DNA of 15,227 nucleotides from a virus (IMGVR_UViG_2740892422_000006:1-15227), one strand, 5' to 3'; positions 1 to 6,036 are shown, counted from the first letter of the stretch. Notes: generated from the sequence alone by a model not told the origin. A program made the numbers and translations.

Positions 1-7
1 CACTGGG

Positions 8-169
8 TTATCGCTCGCCACGGGAATATCTGCGGCAGCAGGCCAGTAATGGATTAAGTGATAACAGGTGTCTGGAAATATAGGGGCAAATCCAATCACG
101 TACAACAGCCCAACCCAGAACCCATCCCTGATTATCAGGATCAGCCTTCAGGTTATTTTCTACAAACAT
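8..169 (-). CDS. Hypothetical small protein (53 aa)
   Basis: ATG at 169 preceded by AAGGAG SD with 6-nt spacer; the ORF-track start at 199 lacks an SD. No recognisable motif. Confidence 0.3.
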   Translation of the reverse strand: MFVENNLKADPDNQGWVLGWAVVRDWICPYISRHLLSLNPLLACCRRYSRGER

Positions 170-212
170 AGTGTTCTCCTTTTGGGTACCCAGAGACATT
201 CTATGTCATTCA

Positions 213-434
213 TTAAACAGGCAACAACGTGGCTGTTACAATCTCCGCCATATTCGCGTTAAGATCACATTCAACAGAAATTTCTTCATCCGTGGCATCC
301 ACTTCATATGTCCGGGAATAACATTCCGTGCATTTACCACTGAAGATATCCTTAACCAGAACACGTCCACGCTGCAAAACCCTGAATGGAATCGTTCCGT
401 TAAAGGGCTTTACGGTTACCAGTAATCTCTTCAT
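213..434 (-). CDS. Hypothetical protein (73 aa), Cys-containing (CTECY...VEC)
   Basis: ATG at 434 preceded by GGAGGGG SD; the longer track ORF from 563 has no SD. Product not recognised. Confidence 0.4.
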   Translation of the reverse strand: MKRLLVTVKPFNGTIPFRVLQRGRVLVKDIFSGKCTECYSRTYEVDATDEEISVECDLNANMAEIVTATLLPV

Positions 435-595: not shown

Positions 596-778
596 TCAGT
601 TCTGCATACACTGCCGGACACTATCGACTATTTCACAAACCTGAGAGGCAGCATCAAAAAGCTGACGCGCCTTATCCAGACTGACGCATCCCGCCAATAA
701 AAAAGGCACCAGTATCGCTACCAGTGCCCATTTCGCCGCCGTTCGCGGCATCCTGTGTGTCCCGTACTTTTGCTTCAT
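596..778 (-). CDS. Putative small lipoprotein (60 aa)
   Basis: N-terminus MKQKYGTHRMPRTAAKWALVAILVPFLLAGC has a basic n-region, hydrophobic core and an LAGC lipobox; GGAGGA sits just upstream of the ATG at 778. Confidence 0.4.
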   Translation of the reverse strand: MKQKYGTHRMPRTAAKWALVAILVPFLLAGCVSLDKARQLFDAASQVCEIVDSVRQCMQN

Positions 779-904
779 ATCCTCCATCCCGGGGTCAGAA
801 CAGCAACAGCAGTCAGACACATTGCAATGCTGTTTTTCATATTCAATTACCATCTTTCACTGGGGGAAAAATAAAACAAAGCGATGTCCATGCCATGAAC
901 CACC

Positions 905-921
905 CTTAAGGATTCCTTAAG
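905..921 (+). promoter_or_regulatory. PmrA(BasR)-box-like direct repeat CTTAAG-N5-CTTAAG upstream of the Ais-like gene
   Basis: Two CTTAAG hexamers separated by 5 nt (GATTC), 54 nt upstream of the ATG at 975 and followed by an A/T-rich -10-like stretch (ATAAATAAT). Resembles the PmrA box consensus CTTAAT-N5-CTTAAT as I recall it. Confidence 0.4.
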
Positions 922-974
922 AATTGCCATAAATAATCCTGCATTTTATTTTTCCTCCCAACCGGATAATTCCA

Positions 975-1556
975 ATGAGAACTCAGGCCATAAAAAAATA
1001 TTTAGTCATATCTTTTCTCACAATTCTCACCGTAATTTCATACATAATCTTTGCCAGAACGCCGGTGATGCTTGATGGAAGTGATGTCACTAAAATCAGC
1101 AGGCAATATCCGGTTATTTTTCTCATCAGACATGGAGAAAGATGCGATCGCTCTCAAAACAAATGTCTGTCAGCCCACGAAGGGATCACTGTAAACGGAG
1201 CTAATAAAGCCCGGGAATATGGAAAAATATTCAACAACATGTTTCCATCATACGGTCTCTATTCCACAGATACCCTAAGAACCGTACAAACTGCCACTTA
1301 TTTTTCAGGTGGCAAAACACCGGTTATCCCGGAGATGTCAACTTGTGATGATGATGCAATAAATAACATTCTTAAAATTTCACAACAGAATAAAGTCACT
1401 GTGATTTTCACACACAATCATTGTCTGTCAAAAATCGCAAGAAAAATGAACGGATGGCGGTTAAAATCTGATTACCTCGAGACGCTGGTTCTGCACAGGG
1501 ACAATAATAACCTGATTCTCGACGGGGATTTAAAACTACACAACCTTCTCCACTGA
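975..1556 (+). CDS. Ais/PmrG-family histidine phosphatase (homolog of LPS core heptose(II)-phosphate phosphatase), membrane-anchored or secreted
   Basis: 193 aa with LIRHGERCDRS (RHG catalytic motif), FTHNHCL and YSTDTLRTVQTATYFSGGK blocks that parallel E. coli Ais as recalled; hydrophobic N-terminus; AT-rich relative to flanking phage genes. Confidence 0.75.
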   Translation: MRTQAIKKYLVISFLTILTVISYIIFARTPVMLDGSDVTKISRQYPVIFLIRHGERCDRSQNKCLSAHEGITVNGANKAREYGKIFNNMFPSYGLYSTDTLRTVQTATYFSGGKTPVIPEMSTCDDDAINNILKISQQNKVTVIFTHNHCLSKIARKMNGWRLKSDYLETLVLHRDNNNLILDGDLKLHNLLH

Positions 1557-1568
1557 TTCATTGCACCT

Positions 1569-1594
1569 CCCGACCATCATTACAAATGGTCGGG
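1569..1594. terminator. Stem-loop in the convergent intergenic region (Ais-like vs endolysin), likely bidirectional terminator
   Basis: Perfect 9-bp inverted repeat CCCGACCAT-N8-ATGGTCGGG followed by ATATATT on the plus strand. Confidence 0.4.
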
Positions 1595-1605
1595 ATATAT
1601 TCCTG

Positions 1606-2160
1606 TTATATCATCACACGCTCTTTCATCCAGCCATAGACAAAGGACTCGTTAGCCTCACGTTTCTCTGCCAGCGCCAGATAACGCTCACCCTGTGTAC
1701 AGTTCAGTGCTGTCAGCATCACCAGTTCGCCATCTTTACCGCGTTTTTCCAAGAATACGCGGAGTGCGTTAATGGTTCGGGGGCCGATACACCCGTCTGT
1801 ATCCATGTCCGGATACAGCATCCCCTTCTGGTTAAATACATTCAGCCAGCGCTGAAGCATCTTTGCCGCAACTGCCGGCCCCATGTTCACACCCGTGTCG
1901 CAAAGCTCTGCGGCAATGTCCGCAGACAGGTTTGCCACCTTGTCGAAATTCGGTCCGTACCAGTAGTCTGCCTCCAGAATTTCCAGCGCCCGCCCGCGGC
2001 TCAAATCACGCATATCGCCACGGTACCCATGTGACCGCGCCACTTTTTCAGTTATGCCCCACTTCGTTGCACCACCTGTATCGTCAGGGTGACTGACGTA
2101 GCCCCCCTCTTTTCCCAGGATTTCATCAAAAACTTCATCTCTCGATTTCATATCAGCCAC
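1606..2160 (-). CDS. Endolysin, glycoside hydrolase family 108-like N-terminal domain with C-terminal peptidoglycan-binding domain
   Basis: N-terminal EILGKEGGYVSHPDDTGGATKWGIT is the GH108 signature; C-terminal region resembles PG_binding_3. Start is GTG at 2160 or ATG at 2151; it overlaps the stop of the upstream holin-like gene. Confidence 0.75.
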   Translation of the reverse strand: MADMKSRDEVFDEILGKEGGYVSHPDDTGGATKWGITEKVARSHGYRGDMRDLSRGRALEILEADYWYGPNFDKVANLSADIAAELCDTGVNMGPAVAAKMLQRWLNVFNQKGMLYPDMDTDGCIGPRTINALRVFLEKRGKDGELVMLTALNCTQGERYLALAEKREANESFVYGWMKERVMI

Positions 2161-2431
2161 TCAGTAAGGCAAAAATTTTTGAAACATTACCGCGCGCACG
2201 CACCACCAGAACACCAAACACCAGGTTCAGCACCACCACCAGCCAGTCTGCCGGCAAGGGATGACCACACAGATAACTTAACGGCGTTATCGCATACAGC
2301 AGCATCAGACACCAGGCACACCACGATATCAGCGGTTTGTGTCGGGACGCTTTTCTGCGGTAGAAAAAAAGCGTCAGCACGATAACCGTACACAGCGCCG
2401 CATTCAGTAATCCGGGAAGATTATTTGCCAT
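2153..2431 (-). CDS. Holin or antiholin-like small membrane protein (92 aa, about 3 TM segments)
   Basis: ATG at 2431 preceded by GGAGGAGGTGGTGGTA; hydrophobic segments LLNAALCTVIVLTLFF, WCAWCLMLLYAITPL and WLVVVLNLVFGVLVV; sits immediately upstream of the endolysin. Confidence 0.5.
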   Translation of the reverse strand: MANNLPGLLNAALCTVIVLTLFFYRRKASRHKPLISWCAWCLMLLYAITPLSYLCGHPLPADWLVVVLNLVFGVLVVRARGNVSKIFALLSG

Positions 2432-2813
2432 TACCACCACCTCCTCCCCGCTGACGGGAGAACACACCGGACACCAGCGATGCAATATCCTGCTGGTGGA
2501 TGAACGAGAGAATCTTCACCGACACCACTGACACCAGCACTGCACACAGTGCGTCGACGGGAGCACCGTCAAACCCTGTATGCTTTACCAGCCAGGATGC
2601 CAGAACCTCTGCGCCCAGCACGCCGACAATGAACGACACCAGAAAATGCGCCGCCACACGCCAGGCTGAAAGCGCCTGCGGCATCGTTGCCACAAATAAC
2701 GCCCCGGCGAACGCACCAAACACAATCCCGAAATCCGTTCCGGTAAACAGCCCGAATACCGTCGCCCCGCCGAGCGCCGCAGCCGTGCCGGAACCGGATA
2801 AGGGTTCAGACAT
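2421..2813 (-). CDS. Holin-like membrane protein (130 aa, Gly/Ala-rich TM segments, poly-Gly C-terminus)
   Basis: ATG at 2813 preceded by AGGAGAAAAAGT; multiple TM-like segments; overlaps the next gene start; position in lysis cassette. The longer track ORF starts without an SD. Confidence 0.5.
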   Translation of the reverse strand: MSEPLSGSGTAAALGGATVFGLFTGTDFGIVFGAFAGALFVATMPQALSAWRVAAHFLVSFIVGVLGAEVLASWLVKHTGFDGAPVDALCAVLVSVVSVKILSFIHQQDIASLVSGVFSRQRGGGGGNGK

Positions 2814-2946
2814 ACTTTTTCTCCTGTAAATAAAAAAGGGCCACCAGCACACCATCTGCCAGCACCGACATCAGCCGTCCGGTGAAATCCACCACCACTA
2901 CCAGAAACAGCAGGATGGCAGCCAGTACAAGGCGCGCACTTTTCAC
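2806..2946 (-). CDS. Small hydrophobic ORF (46 aa, MKSARLVLAAILLFLVVVVDFTGRLMSVLADGVLVALFYLQEKKYV), possible lysis-regulatory membrane peptide
   Basis: GTG start at 2946 overlaps the TerB-like stop (GTGA); its TGA stop overlaps the holin ATG (ATGTCTGA). Not in the ORF track because it is shorter than 60 aa. Confidence 0.3.
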   Translation of the reverse strand: MKSARLVLAAILLFLVVVVDFTGRLMSVLADGVLVALFYLQEKKYV

Positions 2947-3368
2947 AGATACTGCTCCAGCGGTAACTGCAGCGCCTGAGCAATTTTCTTGAGCTGCGCT
3001 TCTTCATCCGGACCAATGCCGTCCTGGTCTGCGATATCCAGACACAGGCACAGCACATTAACTGCATCATCAGTACCTGCAACATCAGCCAGCTGACGAA
3101 GGGCTTCGGCATTGGCAGAACGCGGTGACGCTTCATAACGGGCGCGGATATTGGCGCTCATCTGGGCAATCTCACCGGAGAACGGCGCAAAGGACGGAAG
3201 CGCTGCAATGGTTTTCTCCAGTACCGCAATTTCTTTCGCGTCACAGGTGCCGTCAGCGTATGCAATGGAATACGCACCCCAGACGGTTGCCTCCACTGCG
3301 TCGCGGTTCTCCATCTTCTTCACTTCGGTAATGGCCTTGCGGGTTTTCTTTTTGAAAATACCAAACAT
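2943..3368 (-). CDS. TerB-like (tellurite-resistance TerB fold) protein, 141 aa
   Basis: Two ADG/DG-containing acidic helical repeats (SIAYADGTCDAKEIAVLEKTIAAL and LCLCLDIADQDGIGPDEEAQLKKIAQAL) typical of the TerB fold; ATG at 3368 with AAGGAA upstream. Confidence 0.5.
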   Translation of the reverse strand: MFGIFKKKTRKAITEVKKMENRDAVEATVWGAYSIAYADGTCDAKEIAVLEKTIAALPSFAPFSGEIAQMSANIRARYEASPRSANAEALRQLADVAGTDDAVNVLCLCLDIADQDGIGPDEEAQLKKIAQALQLPLEQYL

Positions 3369-3396
3369 CGTGACGTTTCCTTTTAGTGGGTGAGCC

Positions 3397-3485
3397 TCCG
3401 CCCTGGGGTGACCAGCCCACAGAGAAAGTCACACTGACCATCCCGTAAGCTCACCCCTGAAAGGCTCTGTGGTTTTTGATGTGCG
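3397..3485 (-). promoter_or_regulatory. Structured 5' leader upstream of the TerB-like gene with interleaved complementary segments (pseudoknot-like)
   Basis: Plus-strand GGGTGAGC (3397-3404) pairs with GCTCACCC (3461-3468), and CCACAGAG (3428-3436) pairs with CTCTGTGG (3478-3485), in A-B-A'-B' order. Confidence 0.25.
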
Positions 3486-3544
3486 CCGGGCGTGACGCAA
3501 AGAAATGAAATAAGAATTACCTGAAATTAAGGTTAATCTGAGGA

Positions 3545-3662
3545 TTTAAACCATTTTTAATGCTTAGTAATATAAATACGTCTCTCTGGAGGAGAGAGAT
3601 GCTTATTCTTCTTCATGGACTTTGTCCCGCGGCTTTAATCCGACAGCCGCGCCCTTTTTTCG
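3545..3662 (+). ncRNA. Candidate small plus-strand transcript: sigma70-like promoter, internal hairpin and intrinsic terminator
   Basis: -35 TTTAAA, 17-nt spacer, -10 TAATAT (3580-3585); hairpin TCTCTC-TGGAG-GAGAGA; terminator CGCGGCT-N10-AGCCGCG followed by CCCTTTTTTCG (about 3632-3665). Confidence 0.25.
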
Positions 3663-3738: not shown

Positions 3739-3820
3739 TGGACCGTCACCGGGGACTCGAACCCCGCACCACAAAACAACAATACGTGTTATGCACTCTT
3801 ACCCGATGAGTTAGTGACGG
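3739..3820 (-). tRNA. Degenerate tRNA-like gene or tRNA pseudogene (intact acceptor, D and T arms; aberrant anticodon arm)
   Basis: Minus strand reads CCGTCAC-TA-ACTC...GAGT...CGGGG-TTCGAGT-CCCCG-GTGACGG-T-CCA; acceptor and T arms are perfect, but the anticodon arm plus variable region is about 28 nt and does not fold canonically. Confidence 0.4.
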
Positions 3821-3879
3821 TTTTTTGTTCTGTGGGAATCCAGCCTGACGACAGAATTACTGGAACACCTTGCAAAAAA

Positions 3880-3905
3880 AGCCAGCCACCAGAGACTGGC
3901 TGGCA
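3880..3905 (-). terminator. Intrinsic terminator-like hairpin (minus strand)
   Basis: GCCAGCC-N10-GGCTGGC, followed on the minus strand by TTTTTTTG. Confidence 0.35.
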
Positions 3906-4082
3906 AATGACAGAGTTTAAATGATTCATCATACAATCGTCGTTACAGGGGAATCCTGCGGTGCAGCAAGATACAGAAATGTAAGCAAACTAACAATAAG
4001 CAAGCACAGCATATTCGGAATTAGTTATAATTTTAACGATGCAGTGCTTATTCAGCATGCAATTCTGCAAATTACCAAAAAA

Positions 4083-4100
4083 AACCGCCTGCTAAGGCGG
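4083..4100 (-). terminator. Intrinsic terminator-like hairpin (minus strand)
   Basis: ACCGCC-TTAGCA-GGCGGT, followed on the minus strand by a T8 run. Confidence 0.4.
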
Positions 4101-4465
4101 TGGTCAAATCAGTAAGTGCTGAAGAGTATTATTATAATACAAGTGAGGTGTCGGGTGCCTCCCGAAATACCTGACATTCCATCAGATACTGTAGTTTCCC
4201 GGCTAAACTACTTAAACCACCCCGCACATGGAGTTCACCTCATTTTGTGATGTTAACAACATCGGGATAGTGCATAATCAGCCCCTGCCAGGAAATATCA
4301 AAAATCCCACCAATAATGCACTATTCCGATAGCGTCAAAAAACACAGCACCGAAATCATAACTGGTCTCCGTTATAATTCGGGAGCGCGATAAGGGATAT
4401 ACGAGACCTTTTCCCGCGAGAAAAAAAACGCCAGTGCTGAAAAACCTGTACCTCATTTGTTTTGC

Positions 4466-4540
<75 letters not shown>

Positions 4541-4543
4541 ATA

Positions 4544-4619
<76 letters not shown>

Positions 4620-4621
4620 AC

Positions 4622-4698
4622 TGGACCGCCACCGGGGACTCGAACCTCGCACACTCAACTTAAAGGGTTGACGCTCTTTCCTGATGAGCTAGTGGCGG
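4622..4698 (-). tRNA. Atypical tRNA; anticodon loop CCUUUAA (UUU/Lys in canonical register, but C at position 33 and an A-C mismatch in the T stem)
   Basis: Minus strand CCGCCAC-TA-GCTC-ATCAGGAAA-GAGC-G-TCAAC-CCTTTAA-GTTGA-GTGTG-CGAGG-TTCGAGT-CCCCG-GTGGCGG-T-CCA; full cloverleaf, spaced 1-2 nt from neighbouring tRNAs. Confidence 0.5.
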
Positions 4699-4699
4699 T

Positions 4700-4775
4700 T
4701 GGTGGCCCTTGCTGGATTTGAACCAGCGACCTGGCGATTATGAGTCGCTCGCTCTCACCACTGAGCTAAAGGGCC
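4700..4775 (-). tRNA. tRNA-Ile2 (anticodon CAU, lysidine-type; Met identity not excluded from sequence alone)
   Basis: Minus strand GGCCCTTTAGCTCAGTGGTGAGAGCGAGCGACTCATAATCGCCAGGTCGCTGGTTCAAATCCAGCAAGGGCCACCA resembles ileX/ileY-type tRNA as recalled. Confidence 0.7.
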
Positions 4776-4984: not shown

Positions 4985-5674
4985 TCAATCTACTTTTGCA
5001 ACACTTTGCTTTGAAAATGCCGCCTTTTGTTTTGAACGCGTTCTCATTACAAACAATAAAGCCCCACTATCCAGTCGGTAAAAAATGTGTTTCATTGCAA
5101 CCCAGTGACGAGTAAATGTTTTGGACCAGTTTTTAGTTGTCACTCCCGCCAGTAATGCCAGCTCCTGGTATTCATAACCTTCCCCACCAAAAAGTTCTGC
5201 TTTTACTGCCTGCGCCGCCAGCCAGATTAATTTTTTCAGGCGTTCCTGCGTTTTCCCTGCAATTTTTCTGGTACCGGATTGAGTATTAAATTCATTCCAC
5301 GCCCACTGTGTTATCGCGATCTGATATTCCCAACAAATACTCCCGCTGTAACACCACAACAACCAGGCTTTATGATGTTCTTCAAGAGACAGAACAGCCC
5401 GCCGCCACGATGATGTCGAAAACTCAACCGGACTGACCAGAGGAATTGACGTCCCCTTCGCCAGCGATTGCTTTCCCGGAATTGGTGGATTATCCCGCGT
5501 TATCATTTTTCCAGTCACTTCATCGCGGTACCGGATTTTTTTTCGCCTGTAACGCCCTGTATCGAACATGGCATTCTCTTGCCAGGCTTCAAGCTGACCT
5601 TTTGTTGCCCCACTCAAATCAGCGGTGGCGATAATGAGCTGCTCACGCACAAACTGTAAATACTGGTTATTCAT
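4985..5674 (-). CDS. Late-gene antiterminator Q-like protein (QuuQ-like), 229 aa
   Basis: Directly downstream of RusA with ATGA start/stop overlap (ATG at 5674), followed by a tR'-like terminator and the late region; position and size fit Qin quuQ-type Q. Family assigned from context and memory. Confidence 0.55.
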   Translation of the reverse strand: MNNQYLQFVREQLIIATADLSGATKGQLEAWQENAMFDTGRYRRKKIRYRDEVTGKMITRDNPPIPGKQSLAKGTSIPLVSPVEFSTSSWRRAVLSLEEHHKAWLLWCYSGSICWEYQIAITQWAWNEFNTQSGTRKIAGKTQERLKKLIWLAAQAVKAELFGGEGYEYQELALLAGVTTKNWSKTFTRHWVAMKHIFYRLDSGALLFVMRTRSKQKAAFSKQSVAKVD

Positions 5675-6036
5675 GCGCACTCCAGTTCTGTGATTTTTAT
5701 CCCCAGCCGCCCACCAGGAACGAGCTGACCGCGCACAATATTGATTTCATCAAACTGCTCGTCGTCTATAAGTAGTCCGGCATGCGTCAGCGCATCCAGT
5801 GGTGCCTTCAGGATATTGTCCAGGTCGCGGCGGCGCTTATCCGGTGGCTCCGCAATAATCTTTATCGCCAGCCTTCCGGACAGGTTTAATTTCAACCGCT
5901 GCTGGCGAACAATTAGCGCCACATCATGGCGATAACGCTTTCCGGCCTCCGAGATGAAATACGTATTGCCATGACGTCGCCAGTAGGTATTCACCGTCGG
6001 CGGGTAAGGTAAAACAAATTCTATGCGTTCAGTCAT
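5671..6036 (-). CDS. rusA: Holliday junction resolvase RusA
   Basis: 121 aa with PPTVNTYWRRHGNTYFISEAGKRYR and the catalytic acidic cluster PPDKRRRDLDN, as in E. coli RusA (PDRRRRDLDN as recalled). Confidence 0.85.
   Translation of the reverse strand: MTERIEFVLPYPPTVNTYWRRHGNTYFISEAGKRYRHDVALIVRQQRLKLNLSGRLAIKIIAEPPDKRRRDLDNILKAPLDALTHAGLLIDDEQFDEINIVRGQLVPGGRLGIKITELECA

Follow-up and report, generated by a model that had tools for sequence, protein, structure and literature searches.

A phiP27-type lysis cassette with a candidate outer-membrane lysis lipoprotein, displaced by an Ais-like insertion, in an Escherichia coli prophage

The stretch of viral DNA considered here (IMGVR_UViG_2740892422_000006:1-15227, which we call the window over its whole length of 15,227 nucleotides) is part of an Escherichia coli lambdoid prophage with its phage genes read on the minus strand. 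Our subject is its lysis cassette, in which two holin-like genes and an endolysin gene are not followed by the spanin genes that stand at this place in phage lambda, namely Rz for the inner-membrane subunit (i-spanin) and Rz1 for the outer-membrane lipoprotein (o-spanin). It belongs to a common family, which we name after phage phiP27 and within which this cassette is unremarkable and a little damaged. The explanation that best accounts for the whole, and to which we assign a probability of about 0.6, is that the cassette is of the phiP27 type, with a small lipoprotein as its outer-membrane lysis factor, that the gene of this lipoprotein was displaced in the window by insertion of an Ais-like gene, and that an accessory pair of genes, TerB/DUF3927, was fused to the cassette by a deletion. 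It is from sequence and gene order that we infer both the part played by the lipoprotein in lysis and its mode of action. Established directly are the identities of the genes, their synteny, the insertion and the deletion, purifying selection on the lipoprotein gene, and that the sequences scanned contain no ORF resembling an i-spanin.

The cassette and the place of the lipoprotein gene

Genes were assigned to families with Pfam, PHROG and NCBIfam (the figures in brackets are E values), and the cassette proper is composed of four genes, given here in the order in which they are read:

2421-2813, minus strand: holin1, Phage_holin_8, 130 amino acids (aa) (Pfam 2.7e-22; phrog_198, holin, 8.5e-43)
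2153-2431, minus strand: holin2, Phage_holin_3_7, 92 aa (Pfam 3.6e-20; phrog_217, holin, 6.2e-35)
1606-2151 (ATG start) or 1606-2160 (GTG start), minus strand: endolysin, GH108 muramidase with PG_binding_3 (Pfam 2.8e-24 and 2.3e-24; phrog_315)
596-778, minus strand: small outer-membrane lipoprotein precursor, 60 aa (phrog_7528, 2.4e-35; lipobox; Shine-Dalgarno site)

The components that characterize the phiP27 type (Phage_holin_8, Phage_holin_3_7, an endolysin and phrog_7528, on one strand and downstream of the antiterminator gene Q) are thus all present and in the same order, with the fourth gene parted from the third by the Ais insertion. The first holin-like protein has several hydrophobic segments; the start of its gene, with AGGAG 5' of the ATG, corresponds to M15 of a 144-aa open reading frame (ORF), which is where the match to Pfam begins and where RefSeq sets the start in a relative (L001). 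The second has three hydrophobic segments, and the two genes overlap by 11 nt. Holin2 overlaps the endolysin gene by 8 nt if the latter starts at the GTG, and is separated from it by 1 nt if it starts at the ATG. The endolysin sequence is devoid of hydrophobic segments, and hence of a signal or signal-anchor-release (SAR) segment.

A first-pass annotation of the window had listed a TerB-like gene, a 46-aa peptide, two holin-like proteins and a GH108 endolysin that overlap from start to stop, with no Rz/Rz1 pair after the endolysin, a convergent Ais-like gene adjoining it and a gene for a small lipoprotein about 800 bp beyond. This description was borne out: all the members were found, in the families it had named, the overlaps run from TerB to the endolysin with the one reservation about its start just mentioned, and the ATG of the lipoprotein gene lies at 827 bp past the endolysin.

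The meaning of this distant position appears when the relatives of the cassette are considered. IMG/VR contains 262 matching stretches, of which 80 were fetched, 78 of them showing the endolysin; gene order was mapped by tblastn in 87 related loci, which together with the window make 88 sequences. In the 78 loci the lipoprotein gene is located 3' of the endolysin, as expected of an o-spanin gene, and it is this location from which the window copy is displaced. The arrangements are as follows:

28 of 78 loci: M15 endolysin, a 17-nt gap, then the lipoprotein gene, with nothing between
2 of 78 loci: GH108 endolysin, with nothing between (one ATGA overlap, one 828-nt gap)
41 of 78 loci: GH108 or M15 endolysin, with only the 57-aa RWW gene between
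7 of 78 loci: GH108 or M15 endolysin, with the RWW gene and a 93-aa ORF (phrog_33497) between

What we call the RWW protein (50-57 aa, phrog_4493/phrog_1115; L006 3326-3499, L007 2121-2273, L002 4258-4431) has a C-terminal hydrophobic segment that ends in these three residues, and in 48 of the 78 loci its gene immediately precedes that of the lipoprotein. It may bring to mind Lcc6, a membrane protein of 65 aa that is needed by phage LambdaSo for lysis (bioRxiv 10.1101/2024.01.23.576932). The most diverged full-length homologues of the lipoprotein, 42-53% identical, start 0-3 nt from the end of an M15 endolysin gene, at loci where the endolysin is preceded by a single Phage_holin_3_1 (lambda-S-like) holin, and at one locus (L092) holin_8, holin_3_7 and RWW are all missing. 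Holin family, endolysin family and presence of RWW all vary, and an endolysin is therefore the sole constant neighbour of the lipoprotein gene. To judge from this synteny, the latter is the normal fourth gene of the cassette, established in the spanin slot. Neither element is rare: of 5426 complete E. coli genomes, 352 contain DNA of the lipoprotein gene (at 544 places) and 374 contain the holin pair (at 691 places).

That the slot is indeed the one used by spanins is illustrated by phage GER2. There the RWW gene is directly upstream of Rz, which starts right after the RWW stop; in phiSTEC1575-Stx2k this is the exact point at which the lipoprotein gene begins, and one junction is thus used by Rz/Rz1 in some phages and by the lipoprotein gene in others. 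Furthermore, both GER2 and a prophage of E. coli O104:H4 carry, downstream of Rz/Rz1 and Ais, a copy of the lipoprotein gene that is an unannotated pseudogene with three in-frame stops (L007 3480-3665; L088 ~3000-3190). Because of this shared junction, and because the pseudogenes stand beside Rz/Rz1, it fits to see the spanin pair and the lipoprotein as alternatives for one job, the fit being that of a single lineage.

The lipoprotein

The gene starts with the ATG at 778, with GGAGG 5 nt upstream; a longer form of 85 aa (596-853) is an upstream extension that has no counterpart in other members of the family. The lipobox, LLAG followed by C, makes residue 31 the lipidated Cys and leaves a mature form of 30 aa, CVSLDKARQLFDAASQVCEIVDSVRQCMQN, in which the residue at +2 is Val and not Asp, as is proper for the sorting of o-spanins to the outer membrane. 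Lipobox and three Cys are invariant across homologues. The mature part is predicted to be helical, contains no proline, and evolves under purifying selection, with a ratio of nonsynonymous to synonymous divergence (pN/pS) of 0.16. The only hydrophobic segment of the protein is that of the signal peptide (residues 13-35) and the C-terminus is polar; with no C-terminal transmembrane segment, the lipoprotein is not a unimolecular spanin of the T1 gp11 type.

No match was found in Pfam (E <= 1), NCBIfam or PADLOC, which at the same Pfam limit also places the protein outside the colicin lysis protein and entericidin families. An exhaustive profile search gave 22 cluster representatives only, all of them short lipoproteins of the same family or fragments, and we are therefore dealing with a narrow family, the database names of which are all 'hypothetical protein' or 'lipoprotein'. 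A match to a PHROG 'Rz-like spanin' (E = 0.089) was disregarded, as it covers the signal peptide and the lipobox.

A separate observation concerns the precursor. Its signal-peptide half (residues 1-30, including MxRKHWTHRxPRTAAKW) is more conserved in protein than the mature half, and synonymous divergence (pS) is 0.12 in the former against 0.22 in the latter, which hints at a constraint on DNA or RNA, or at a function of the precursor itself.

The search for spanins and the annotation of phiP27

With the Rz proteins of lambda and GER2 as queries, tblastn gave no match in the window, and among the 87 loci it matched only GER2; an Rz homologue was found in none of the 80 IMG/VR loci. A de novo scan, in which an i-spanin-like ORF was defined by one N-terminal transmembrane segment followed by at least 35 further residues, recovered both Rz and Rz1 of GER2 as a positive control and yielded no accepted candidate in the window or in the 87 loci. 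A lipobox scan of both strands over the full 15 kb left 596-778 as the sole credible lipoprotein gene. By these three approaches no Rz/Rz1 pair follows the endolysin of the window, and such a pair at its 3' end is what would have spoken against the first-pass annotation. Hence, in two respects the lipoprotein differs from an o-spanin: there is no cognate i-spanin in the window or in the 87 related loci, and its 30 residues, with no partner, do not have the length to bridge the membranes.

Two candidates raised by these scans were set aside. An ORF in an alternative frame over TerB/DUF3927/holin1 (window 2585-3136, minus strand) was recurrent as an i-spanin candidate and was rejected, as it is rich in Arg and Cys, belongs to no PHROG family, and owes its conservation solely to the real genes that it overlaps. 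A plus-strand ORF at 7640-7726 (23-28 aa) matched in the lipobox scan and was not considered credible, having no Shine-Dalgarno site.

The question has received another answer in the case of phiP27 itself, which deserves to be compared in some depth. Its holins, L28 and L29, are the same pair as those of the window (95% and 74% aa identity by tblastn), its lipoprotein belongs to the same family (83% identity), and, as in the window, a convergent ORF lies between endolysin and lipoprotein gene. Its endolysin, L30, is an M15 peptidase whereas that of the window is a GH108 muramidase, and the inserted convergent gene is a 90-aa ORF in the place of the Ais-like phosphatase. Surveying 677 genomes, Kongari et al. 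(2018; PMC6139136) described the phiP27 spanin as a 'separated' two-component one, the shortest of all with 62 residues for the pair, made of an o-spanin of 51 aa with 30 periplasmic residues (20706-20861) and of an i-spanin of 64 aa with 32 periplasmic residues (20348-20542). The window lipoprotein is homologous to their o-spanin, at whose place GenBank/RefSeq annotate L32 in a frame that differs from that of the conserved lipoprotein ORF (L003 3072-3260; record 20673-20861). Their i-spanin has no counterpart in the window and almost none in other members of the family. We consider it a false call, because it is an ORF with a TTG start and no PHROG family, antisense to a family-backed one (the 90-aa plus-strand ORF, locus 3329-3601, phrog_36812, unannotated in GenBank/RefSeq), and because its DNA segment is present in 3 of 5426 E. 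coli genomes, as against 352 for the lipoprotein gene. A further phiP27 ORF, L31, which overlaps the end of the endolysin gene, also has no PHROG family and was not retained.

Among Shiga toxin (Stx) phages, the passages of Pinto et al. (2021; PMC8136144) that bear on the matter report Rz in 277 of 279, and a Stx2e cluster of two members with a metallopeptidase endolysin and a classical holin. It fits these figures that the two phages without Rz are the Stx2e pair, an identification that the passages themselves do not state.

The Ais-like insertion

Between the endolysin and the lipoprotein gene of the window stand two features:

975-1556, plus strand: Ais/PmrG-like lipopolysaccharide (LPS) core heptose(II)-phosphate phosphatase (NCBIfam PRK15416, 5.6e-61)
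1564-1599, no strand assigned: hairpin between the convergent endolysin and Ais stops (-19.9 kcal/mol, z = -3.25)

The Ais-like protein belongs to the Ais/PmrG subfamily, with 205.6 bits for PRK15416 against a cutoff of 142, while with the PmrG equivalog model it reaches 115.6 and remains below the cutoff of 170. Its catalytic RHG motif is intact (IRHGER), and the product, a putative LPS phosphatase, has an N-terminal hydrophobic anchor. The gene has a promoter-like site of its own at 924-952 according to a promoter scan, and the G+C content of the segment is 0.40, against 0.52-0.57 in its flanks. Its stop is 49 bp from that of the endolysin, and none of 200 shuffles folds as well as the hairpin between them, a possible bidirectional terminator.

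Among complete genomes this layout is otherwise seen only in strains C311 and RM8082. The segment stands where 40 of 42 GH108-type relatives have the RWW gene, and the comparison points to a low-GC insertion that replaced this gene and displaced the lipoprotein gene. An Ais-like homologue (69% aa identity) is again convergent, and directly upstream of lipoprotein sequence, in GER2 and in the O104:H4 prophage. There it comes after a complete S-R-Rz/Rz1 set and the lipoprotein sequence is the pseudogene described above, whereas in the window it is preceded by the GH108 endolysin gene and adjoins an intact gene for the lipoprotein.

Three explanations had been offered at first pass for the missing spanin. 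Of these, a displaced o-spanin comes closest, since a conserved lipoprotein from the spanin slot has been moved by the Ais-like insertion, although no cognate i-spanin was found to go with it. Loss of the spanin through insertion of a moron finds no support: relatives free of the insertion are likewise without i-spanin, and the insertion would thus have cost no spanin. As for spanin-independent lysis, it is acceptable only in the sense that no canonical spanin, two-component or unimolecular, is present.

The accessory pair and its fusion to the cassette

Upstream of the holins, the window has been altered in another way, which involves the following features:

2943-3368, minus strand: TerB-like protein (PHROG: tellurite resistance; TciA-like) (Pfam TerB 9.3e-08; phrog_632 9.1e-65)
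2806-2946, minus strand: DUF3927 / TciB-like small membrane protein, 46 aa (Pfam DUF3927 2.3e-10; phrog_1470 8.5e-17)
2840-2848, minus strand: deletion junction, with about 110 bp lost between two GCTGGTGGC copies

The 46-aa peptide had been taken for an extra mini membrane ORF of the lysis cassette. It is in fact the usual DUF3927 (TciB-like) partner of the TerB-like gene, and not a lysis component. The pair, placed between the Q/tRNA region and the lysis genes, is carried by a subset of related loci only, and its slot is held by Stx2e in phiP27 and by the EplAB toxin genes in Rac-SA53. The literature searched had nothing on DUF3927, TciA or TciB beyond papers on Trypanosoma that do not concern them.

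In relatives, some 110 bp separate the end of the pair from holin1, and this interval contains a terminator-like hairpin, GGGCCGCTGGTGGCCC then TTTTTT (compare L001 6700-6980). Alignment with L001, L002 and L004 establishes that the deletion took away the native 3' end of DUF3927, its stop codon and most of this hairpin. The family matches of DUF3927 in Pfam and PHROG cover only about residues 2-37, and its last 14 codons in the window are new sequence that resulted from the deletion, the tail overlapping the start of holin1. TerB and DUF3927 overlap by 4 nt (GTGA), DUF3927 and holin1 by 8 nt, and the contiguous fused DUF3927-holin1 form is seen in none of the 87 other loci. As the terminator stretch has been deleted, the continuous TerB-to-holin 'operon' is therefore peculiar to the window copy: the single operon announced at first pass stands for the window, where the overlaps support it, and cannot be extended to the family. 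The deletion could let transcription of the accessory pair enter the holin genes in the lysogen.

How the lipoprotein may act

We may picture the events as follows. After induction, a Q-modified polymerase would start at the late promoter and transcribe the tRNAs and the accessory pair before it reached the cassette. Permeabilisation of the inner membrane by the holin-like proteins would free the muramidase, a cytoplasmic GH108 enzyme. The lipoprotein would be a late product of Q-antiterminated read-through; after export and lipidation it would be sorted to the outer membrane, into the inner leaflet, and would weaken this membrane once the wall had been degraded, with no need for a specific phage-encoded inner-membrane partner. 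Such stand-alone action is favoured because there is no consistent phage membrane partner and because the protein is too short for the periplasm.

Comparison with known systems makes this scenario more concrete. The Rz/Rz1 genes of lambda and the lipoprotein gene both follow the endolysin in the late operon, and Rz1 and the lipoprotein are both outer-membrane lipoproteins with no Asp at +2 and with conserved periplasmic Cys. However, lambda possesses the inner-membrane subunit Rz, and the lipoprotein cassette has none; Rz1 is a proline-rich unstructured 40-mer, whereas the mature lipoprotein is a predicted helix of 30 residues with no proline, unable to cross the periplasm. Among tiny lipoproteins, entericidin B and the colicin lysis proteins (bacteriocin release proteins), with a mature part of about 27-35 residues, make the envelope permeable and need no partner in the inner membrane to do so. 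As they act alone, a stand-alone role of the 30-residue lipoprotein would by analogy be plausible, although it shares no detectable sequence similarity with them and its setting is that of a phage late operon, after an endolysin. To our knowledge, breach of the outer membrane by a phage devoid of spanin has been worked out only for phiKT disruptin. Disruptin (phiKT gp28) is the outer-membrane disruptor of a spanin-less phage (bioRxiv 10.1101/515445) and, like the lipoprotein, a short peptide in the place of the spanin. It differs in being cationic and in having no lipid anchor, whereas the lipoprotein is lipid-anchored, exported and of net charge -1, and so is not of the disruptin type.

A bolder proposal would be to see in the phrog_7528 lipoprotein another class of lysis factor by which phages act on the outer membrane: a lipid-anchored, disulfide-capable helix of 30 residues that acts without an inner-membrane partner and replaces spanins, in which case the two-component call in phiP27 would be an annotation artefact. 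We put it forward tentatively, at clearly less than even odds.

Several observations weigh against a lytic role of the lipoprotein, or against its working in the window, and have to be faced together. The mature peptide (hydrophobic moment ~0.4-0.58) is not, with its net charge, a cationic membrane-active peptide like disruptin, its 30 residues are too few to bridge the periplasm, and AlphaFold predicts a single helix at low confidence (pLDDT, the predicted local distance difference test, of 64). In the literature searched there is no lysis test of the lipoprotein. A matching lipoprotein gene is missing from about one-fifth of the places with the holin pair. Among these, the prophages with LT-II genes, Rac-SA53 (L089) and SerU-LTIIb (L005), have the same holin pair and GH108 endolysin, followed by toxin genes and then terminase, with neither the lipoprotein gene nor an annotated spanin, and it may therefore be possible to do without the lipoprotein. 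At least one prophage (L002) carries the gene with a frameshift. Finally, for its expression in the window copy, transcription would have to pass both the hairpin and the convergent Ais gene, in a prophage that is truncated by IS2 and may be defective.

Part of this evidence would be equally well accommodated if the lipoprotein were one of lysogenic conversion or exclusion, like Bor, Cor or Llp, with no role in lysis, the cassette then having no outer-membrane factor and the membrane yielding to shear or to some other factor. The uninformative database names, the length insufficient for a periplasmic bridge, the absence from LT-II prophages that have the same holins and endolysin and the frameshift in L002 would all be in keeping with such a function, as would the fact that in some 13-15% of phages with Gram-negative hosts no spanin has been identified (PMC6139136; bioRxiv 10.1101/515445). 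Yet a gene on the same strand as the endolysin, 17 nt behind it or overlapping it by ATGA, without an intervening terminator, has the position of an operon member and not of one expressed separately; its link to the endolysin persists across two endolysin families, two holin architectures and a divergence down to 42-53% identity; and Rz/Rz1 is found at the very same junction in GER2. We hold a role outside lysis to be unlikely, though among the alternatives it keeps the most weight.

Conversely, the lipoprotein could be the outer half of a true two-component spanin whose partner has escaped recognition, be it the 64-aa ORF of phiP27, the RWW protein or a periplasmic loop of a holin. This would agree with the 'separated' class given to phiP27 and with the conserved periplasmic Cys that are typical of spanin subunits (PMC6139136), and also with the RWW gene being immediately upstream in so many loci. 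Each of the partners is nevertheless difficult to accept: the 64-aa ORF belongs to no PHROG family, runs antisense to one that does, and lies on a segment present in only 3 of the 5426 genomes; the C-terminal hydrophobic segment of RWW leaves about 3 residues outside the membrane, and RWW is missing from the window, from 29 minimal loci and from L090/L092; holin families vary among lipoprotein-bearing cassettes, and so provide no consistent membrane protein. A hidden partner is thus improbable. It is also conceivable that the cassette is a degraded one, which lost a former canonical Rz/Rz1 when the Ais-like gene or IS2 arrived. The succession of Rz/Rz1, convergent Ais and lipoprotein sequence in GER2 and O104:H4 offers a possible ancestor, and the prophage has suffered both an IS2 insertion and the 110-bp deletion. 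We give this very little credence, in view of the absence of any Rz homologue from the 80 IMG/VR loci with the holin pair and of any Rz remnant from the window, and of a lipoprotein gene that is intact there when the copies beside Rz/Rz1 are pseudogenes. A displaced lipoprotein gene that would encode the outer-membrane lysis factor of the family is the explanation we prefer.

The prophage setting

The remainder of the window is consistent with a lambdoid prophage, in which the following features frame the cassette:

5671-6036: RusA (family search)
4985-5680: antiterminator Q (family search)
3739-4775, minus strand: five tRNA genes, between Q and the lysis region
213-434, minus strand: 73-aa ORF, phrog_2571
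1-95: end of an IS2 copy, which truncates the prophage downstream of the cassette

Genes for a CI-like repressor, a Cro-like protein and replication are located farther right. The tRNA set consists of Met, Lys, Thr and Gly, tightly clustered, together with an 82-nt tRNA-Val with anticodon aac; related loci have other sets, for example Arg/Ile or Gly/Thr. On the other side, the 73-aa ORF is often 3' of the lipoprotein gene and is mentioned for context only, as it does not pertain to lysis. The IS2 end disrupts an 81-aa phrog_4280 gene (window 1-199) that is intact in strain C311, and the packaging genes expected past IS2 are outside the window.

A further feature was observed at 8105-9599 on the plus strand, where a gene for a Ser/Thr protein kinase overlaps one for a PP2C-type phosphatase. 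The kinase matches Pfam Pkinase (1.4e-31) and the mad6, PD-T4-6 and Stk2 models of PADLOC, and the pair lies in an island of 35-38% GC, oriented opposite to the phage genes. Possibly it was inserted as a defence against phages that works through a kinase.

Significance

The family is of more interest than the window itself, as it associates a conserved lipoprotein in the spanin slot with the lack of an i-spanin, and contradicts one published annotation. Cassettes of this kind are common in prophages of E. coli, Salmonella, Citrobacter and Yersinia. Should the proposed function prove true, spanins would have been replaced in a cassette family that about 6% of complete E. coli genomes carry and to which the cassettes of Stx2e and Stx2k phages belong. 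Whether a single lipoprotein does the work of a spanin bears on the release of toxins and virions, on the rules by which spanins are annotated and on the design of lysis cassettes.

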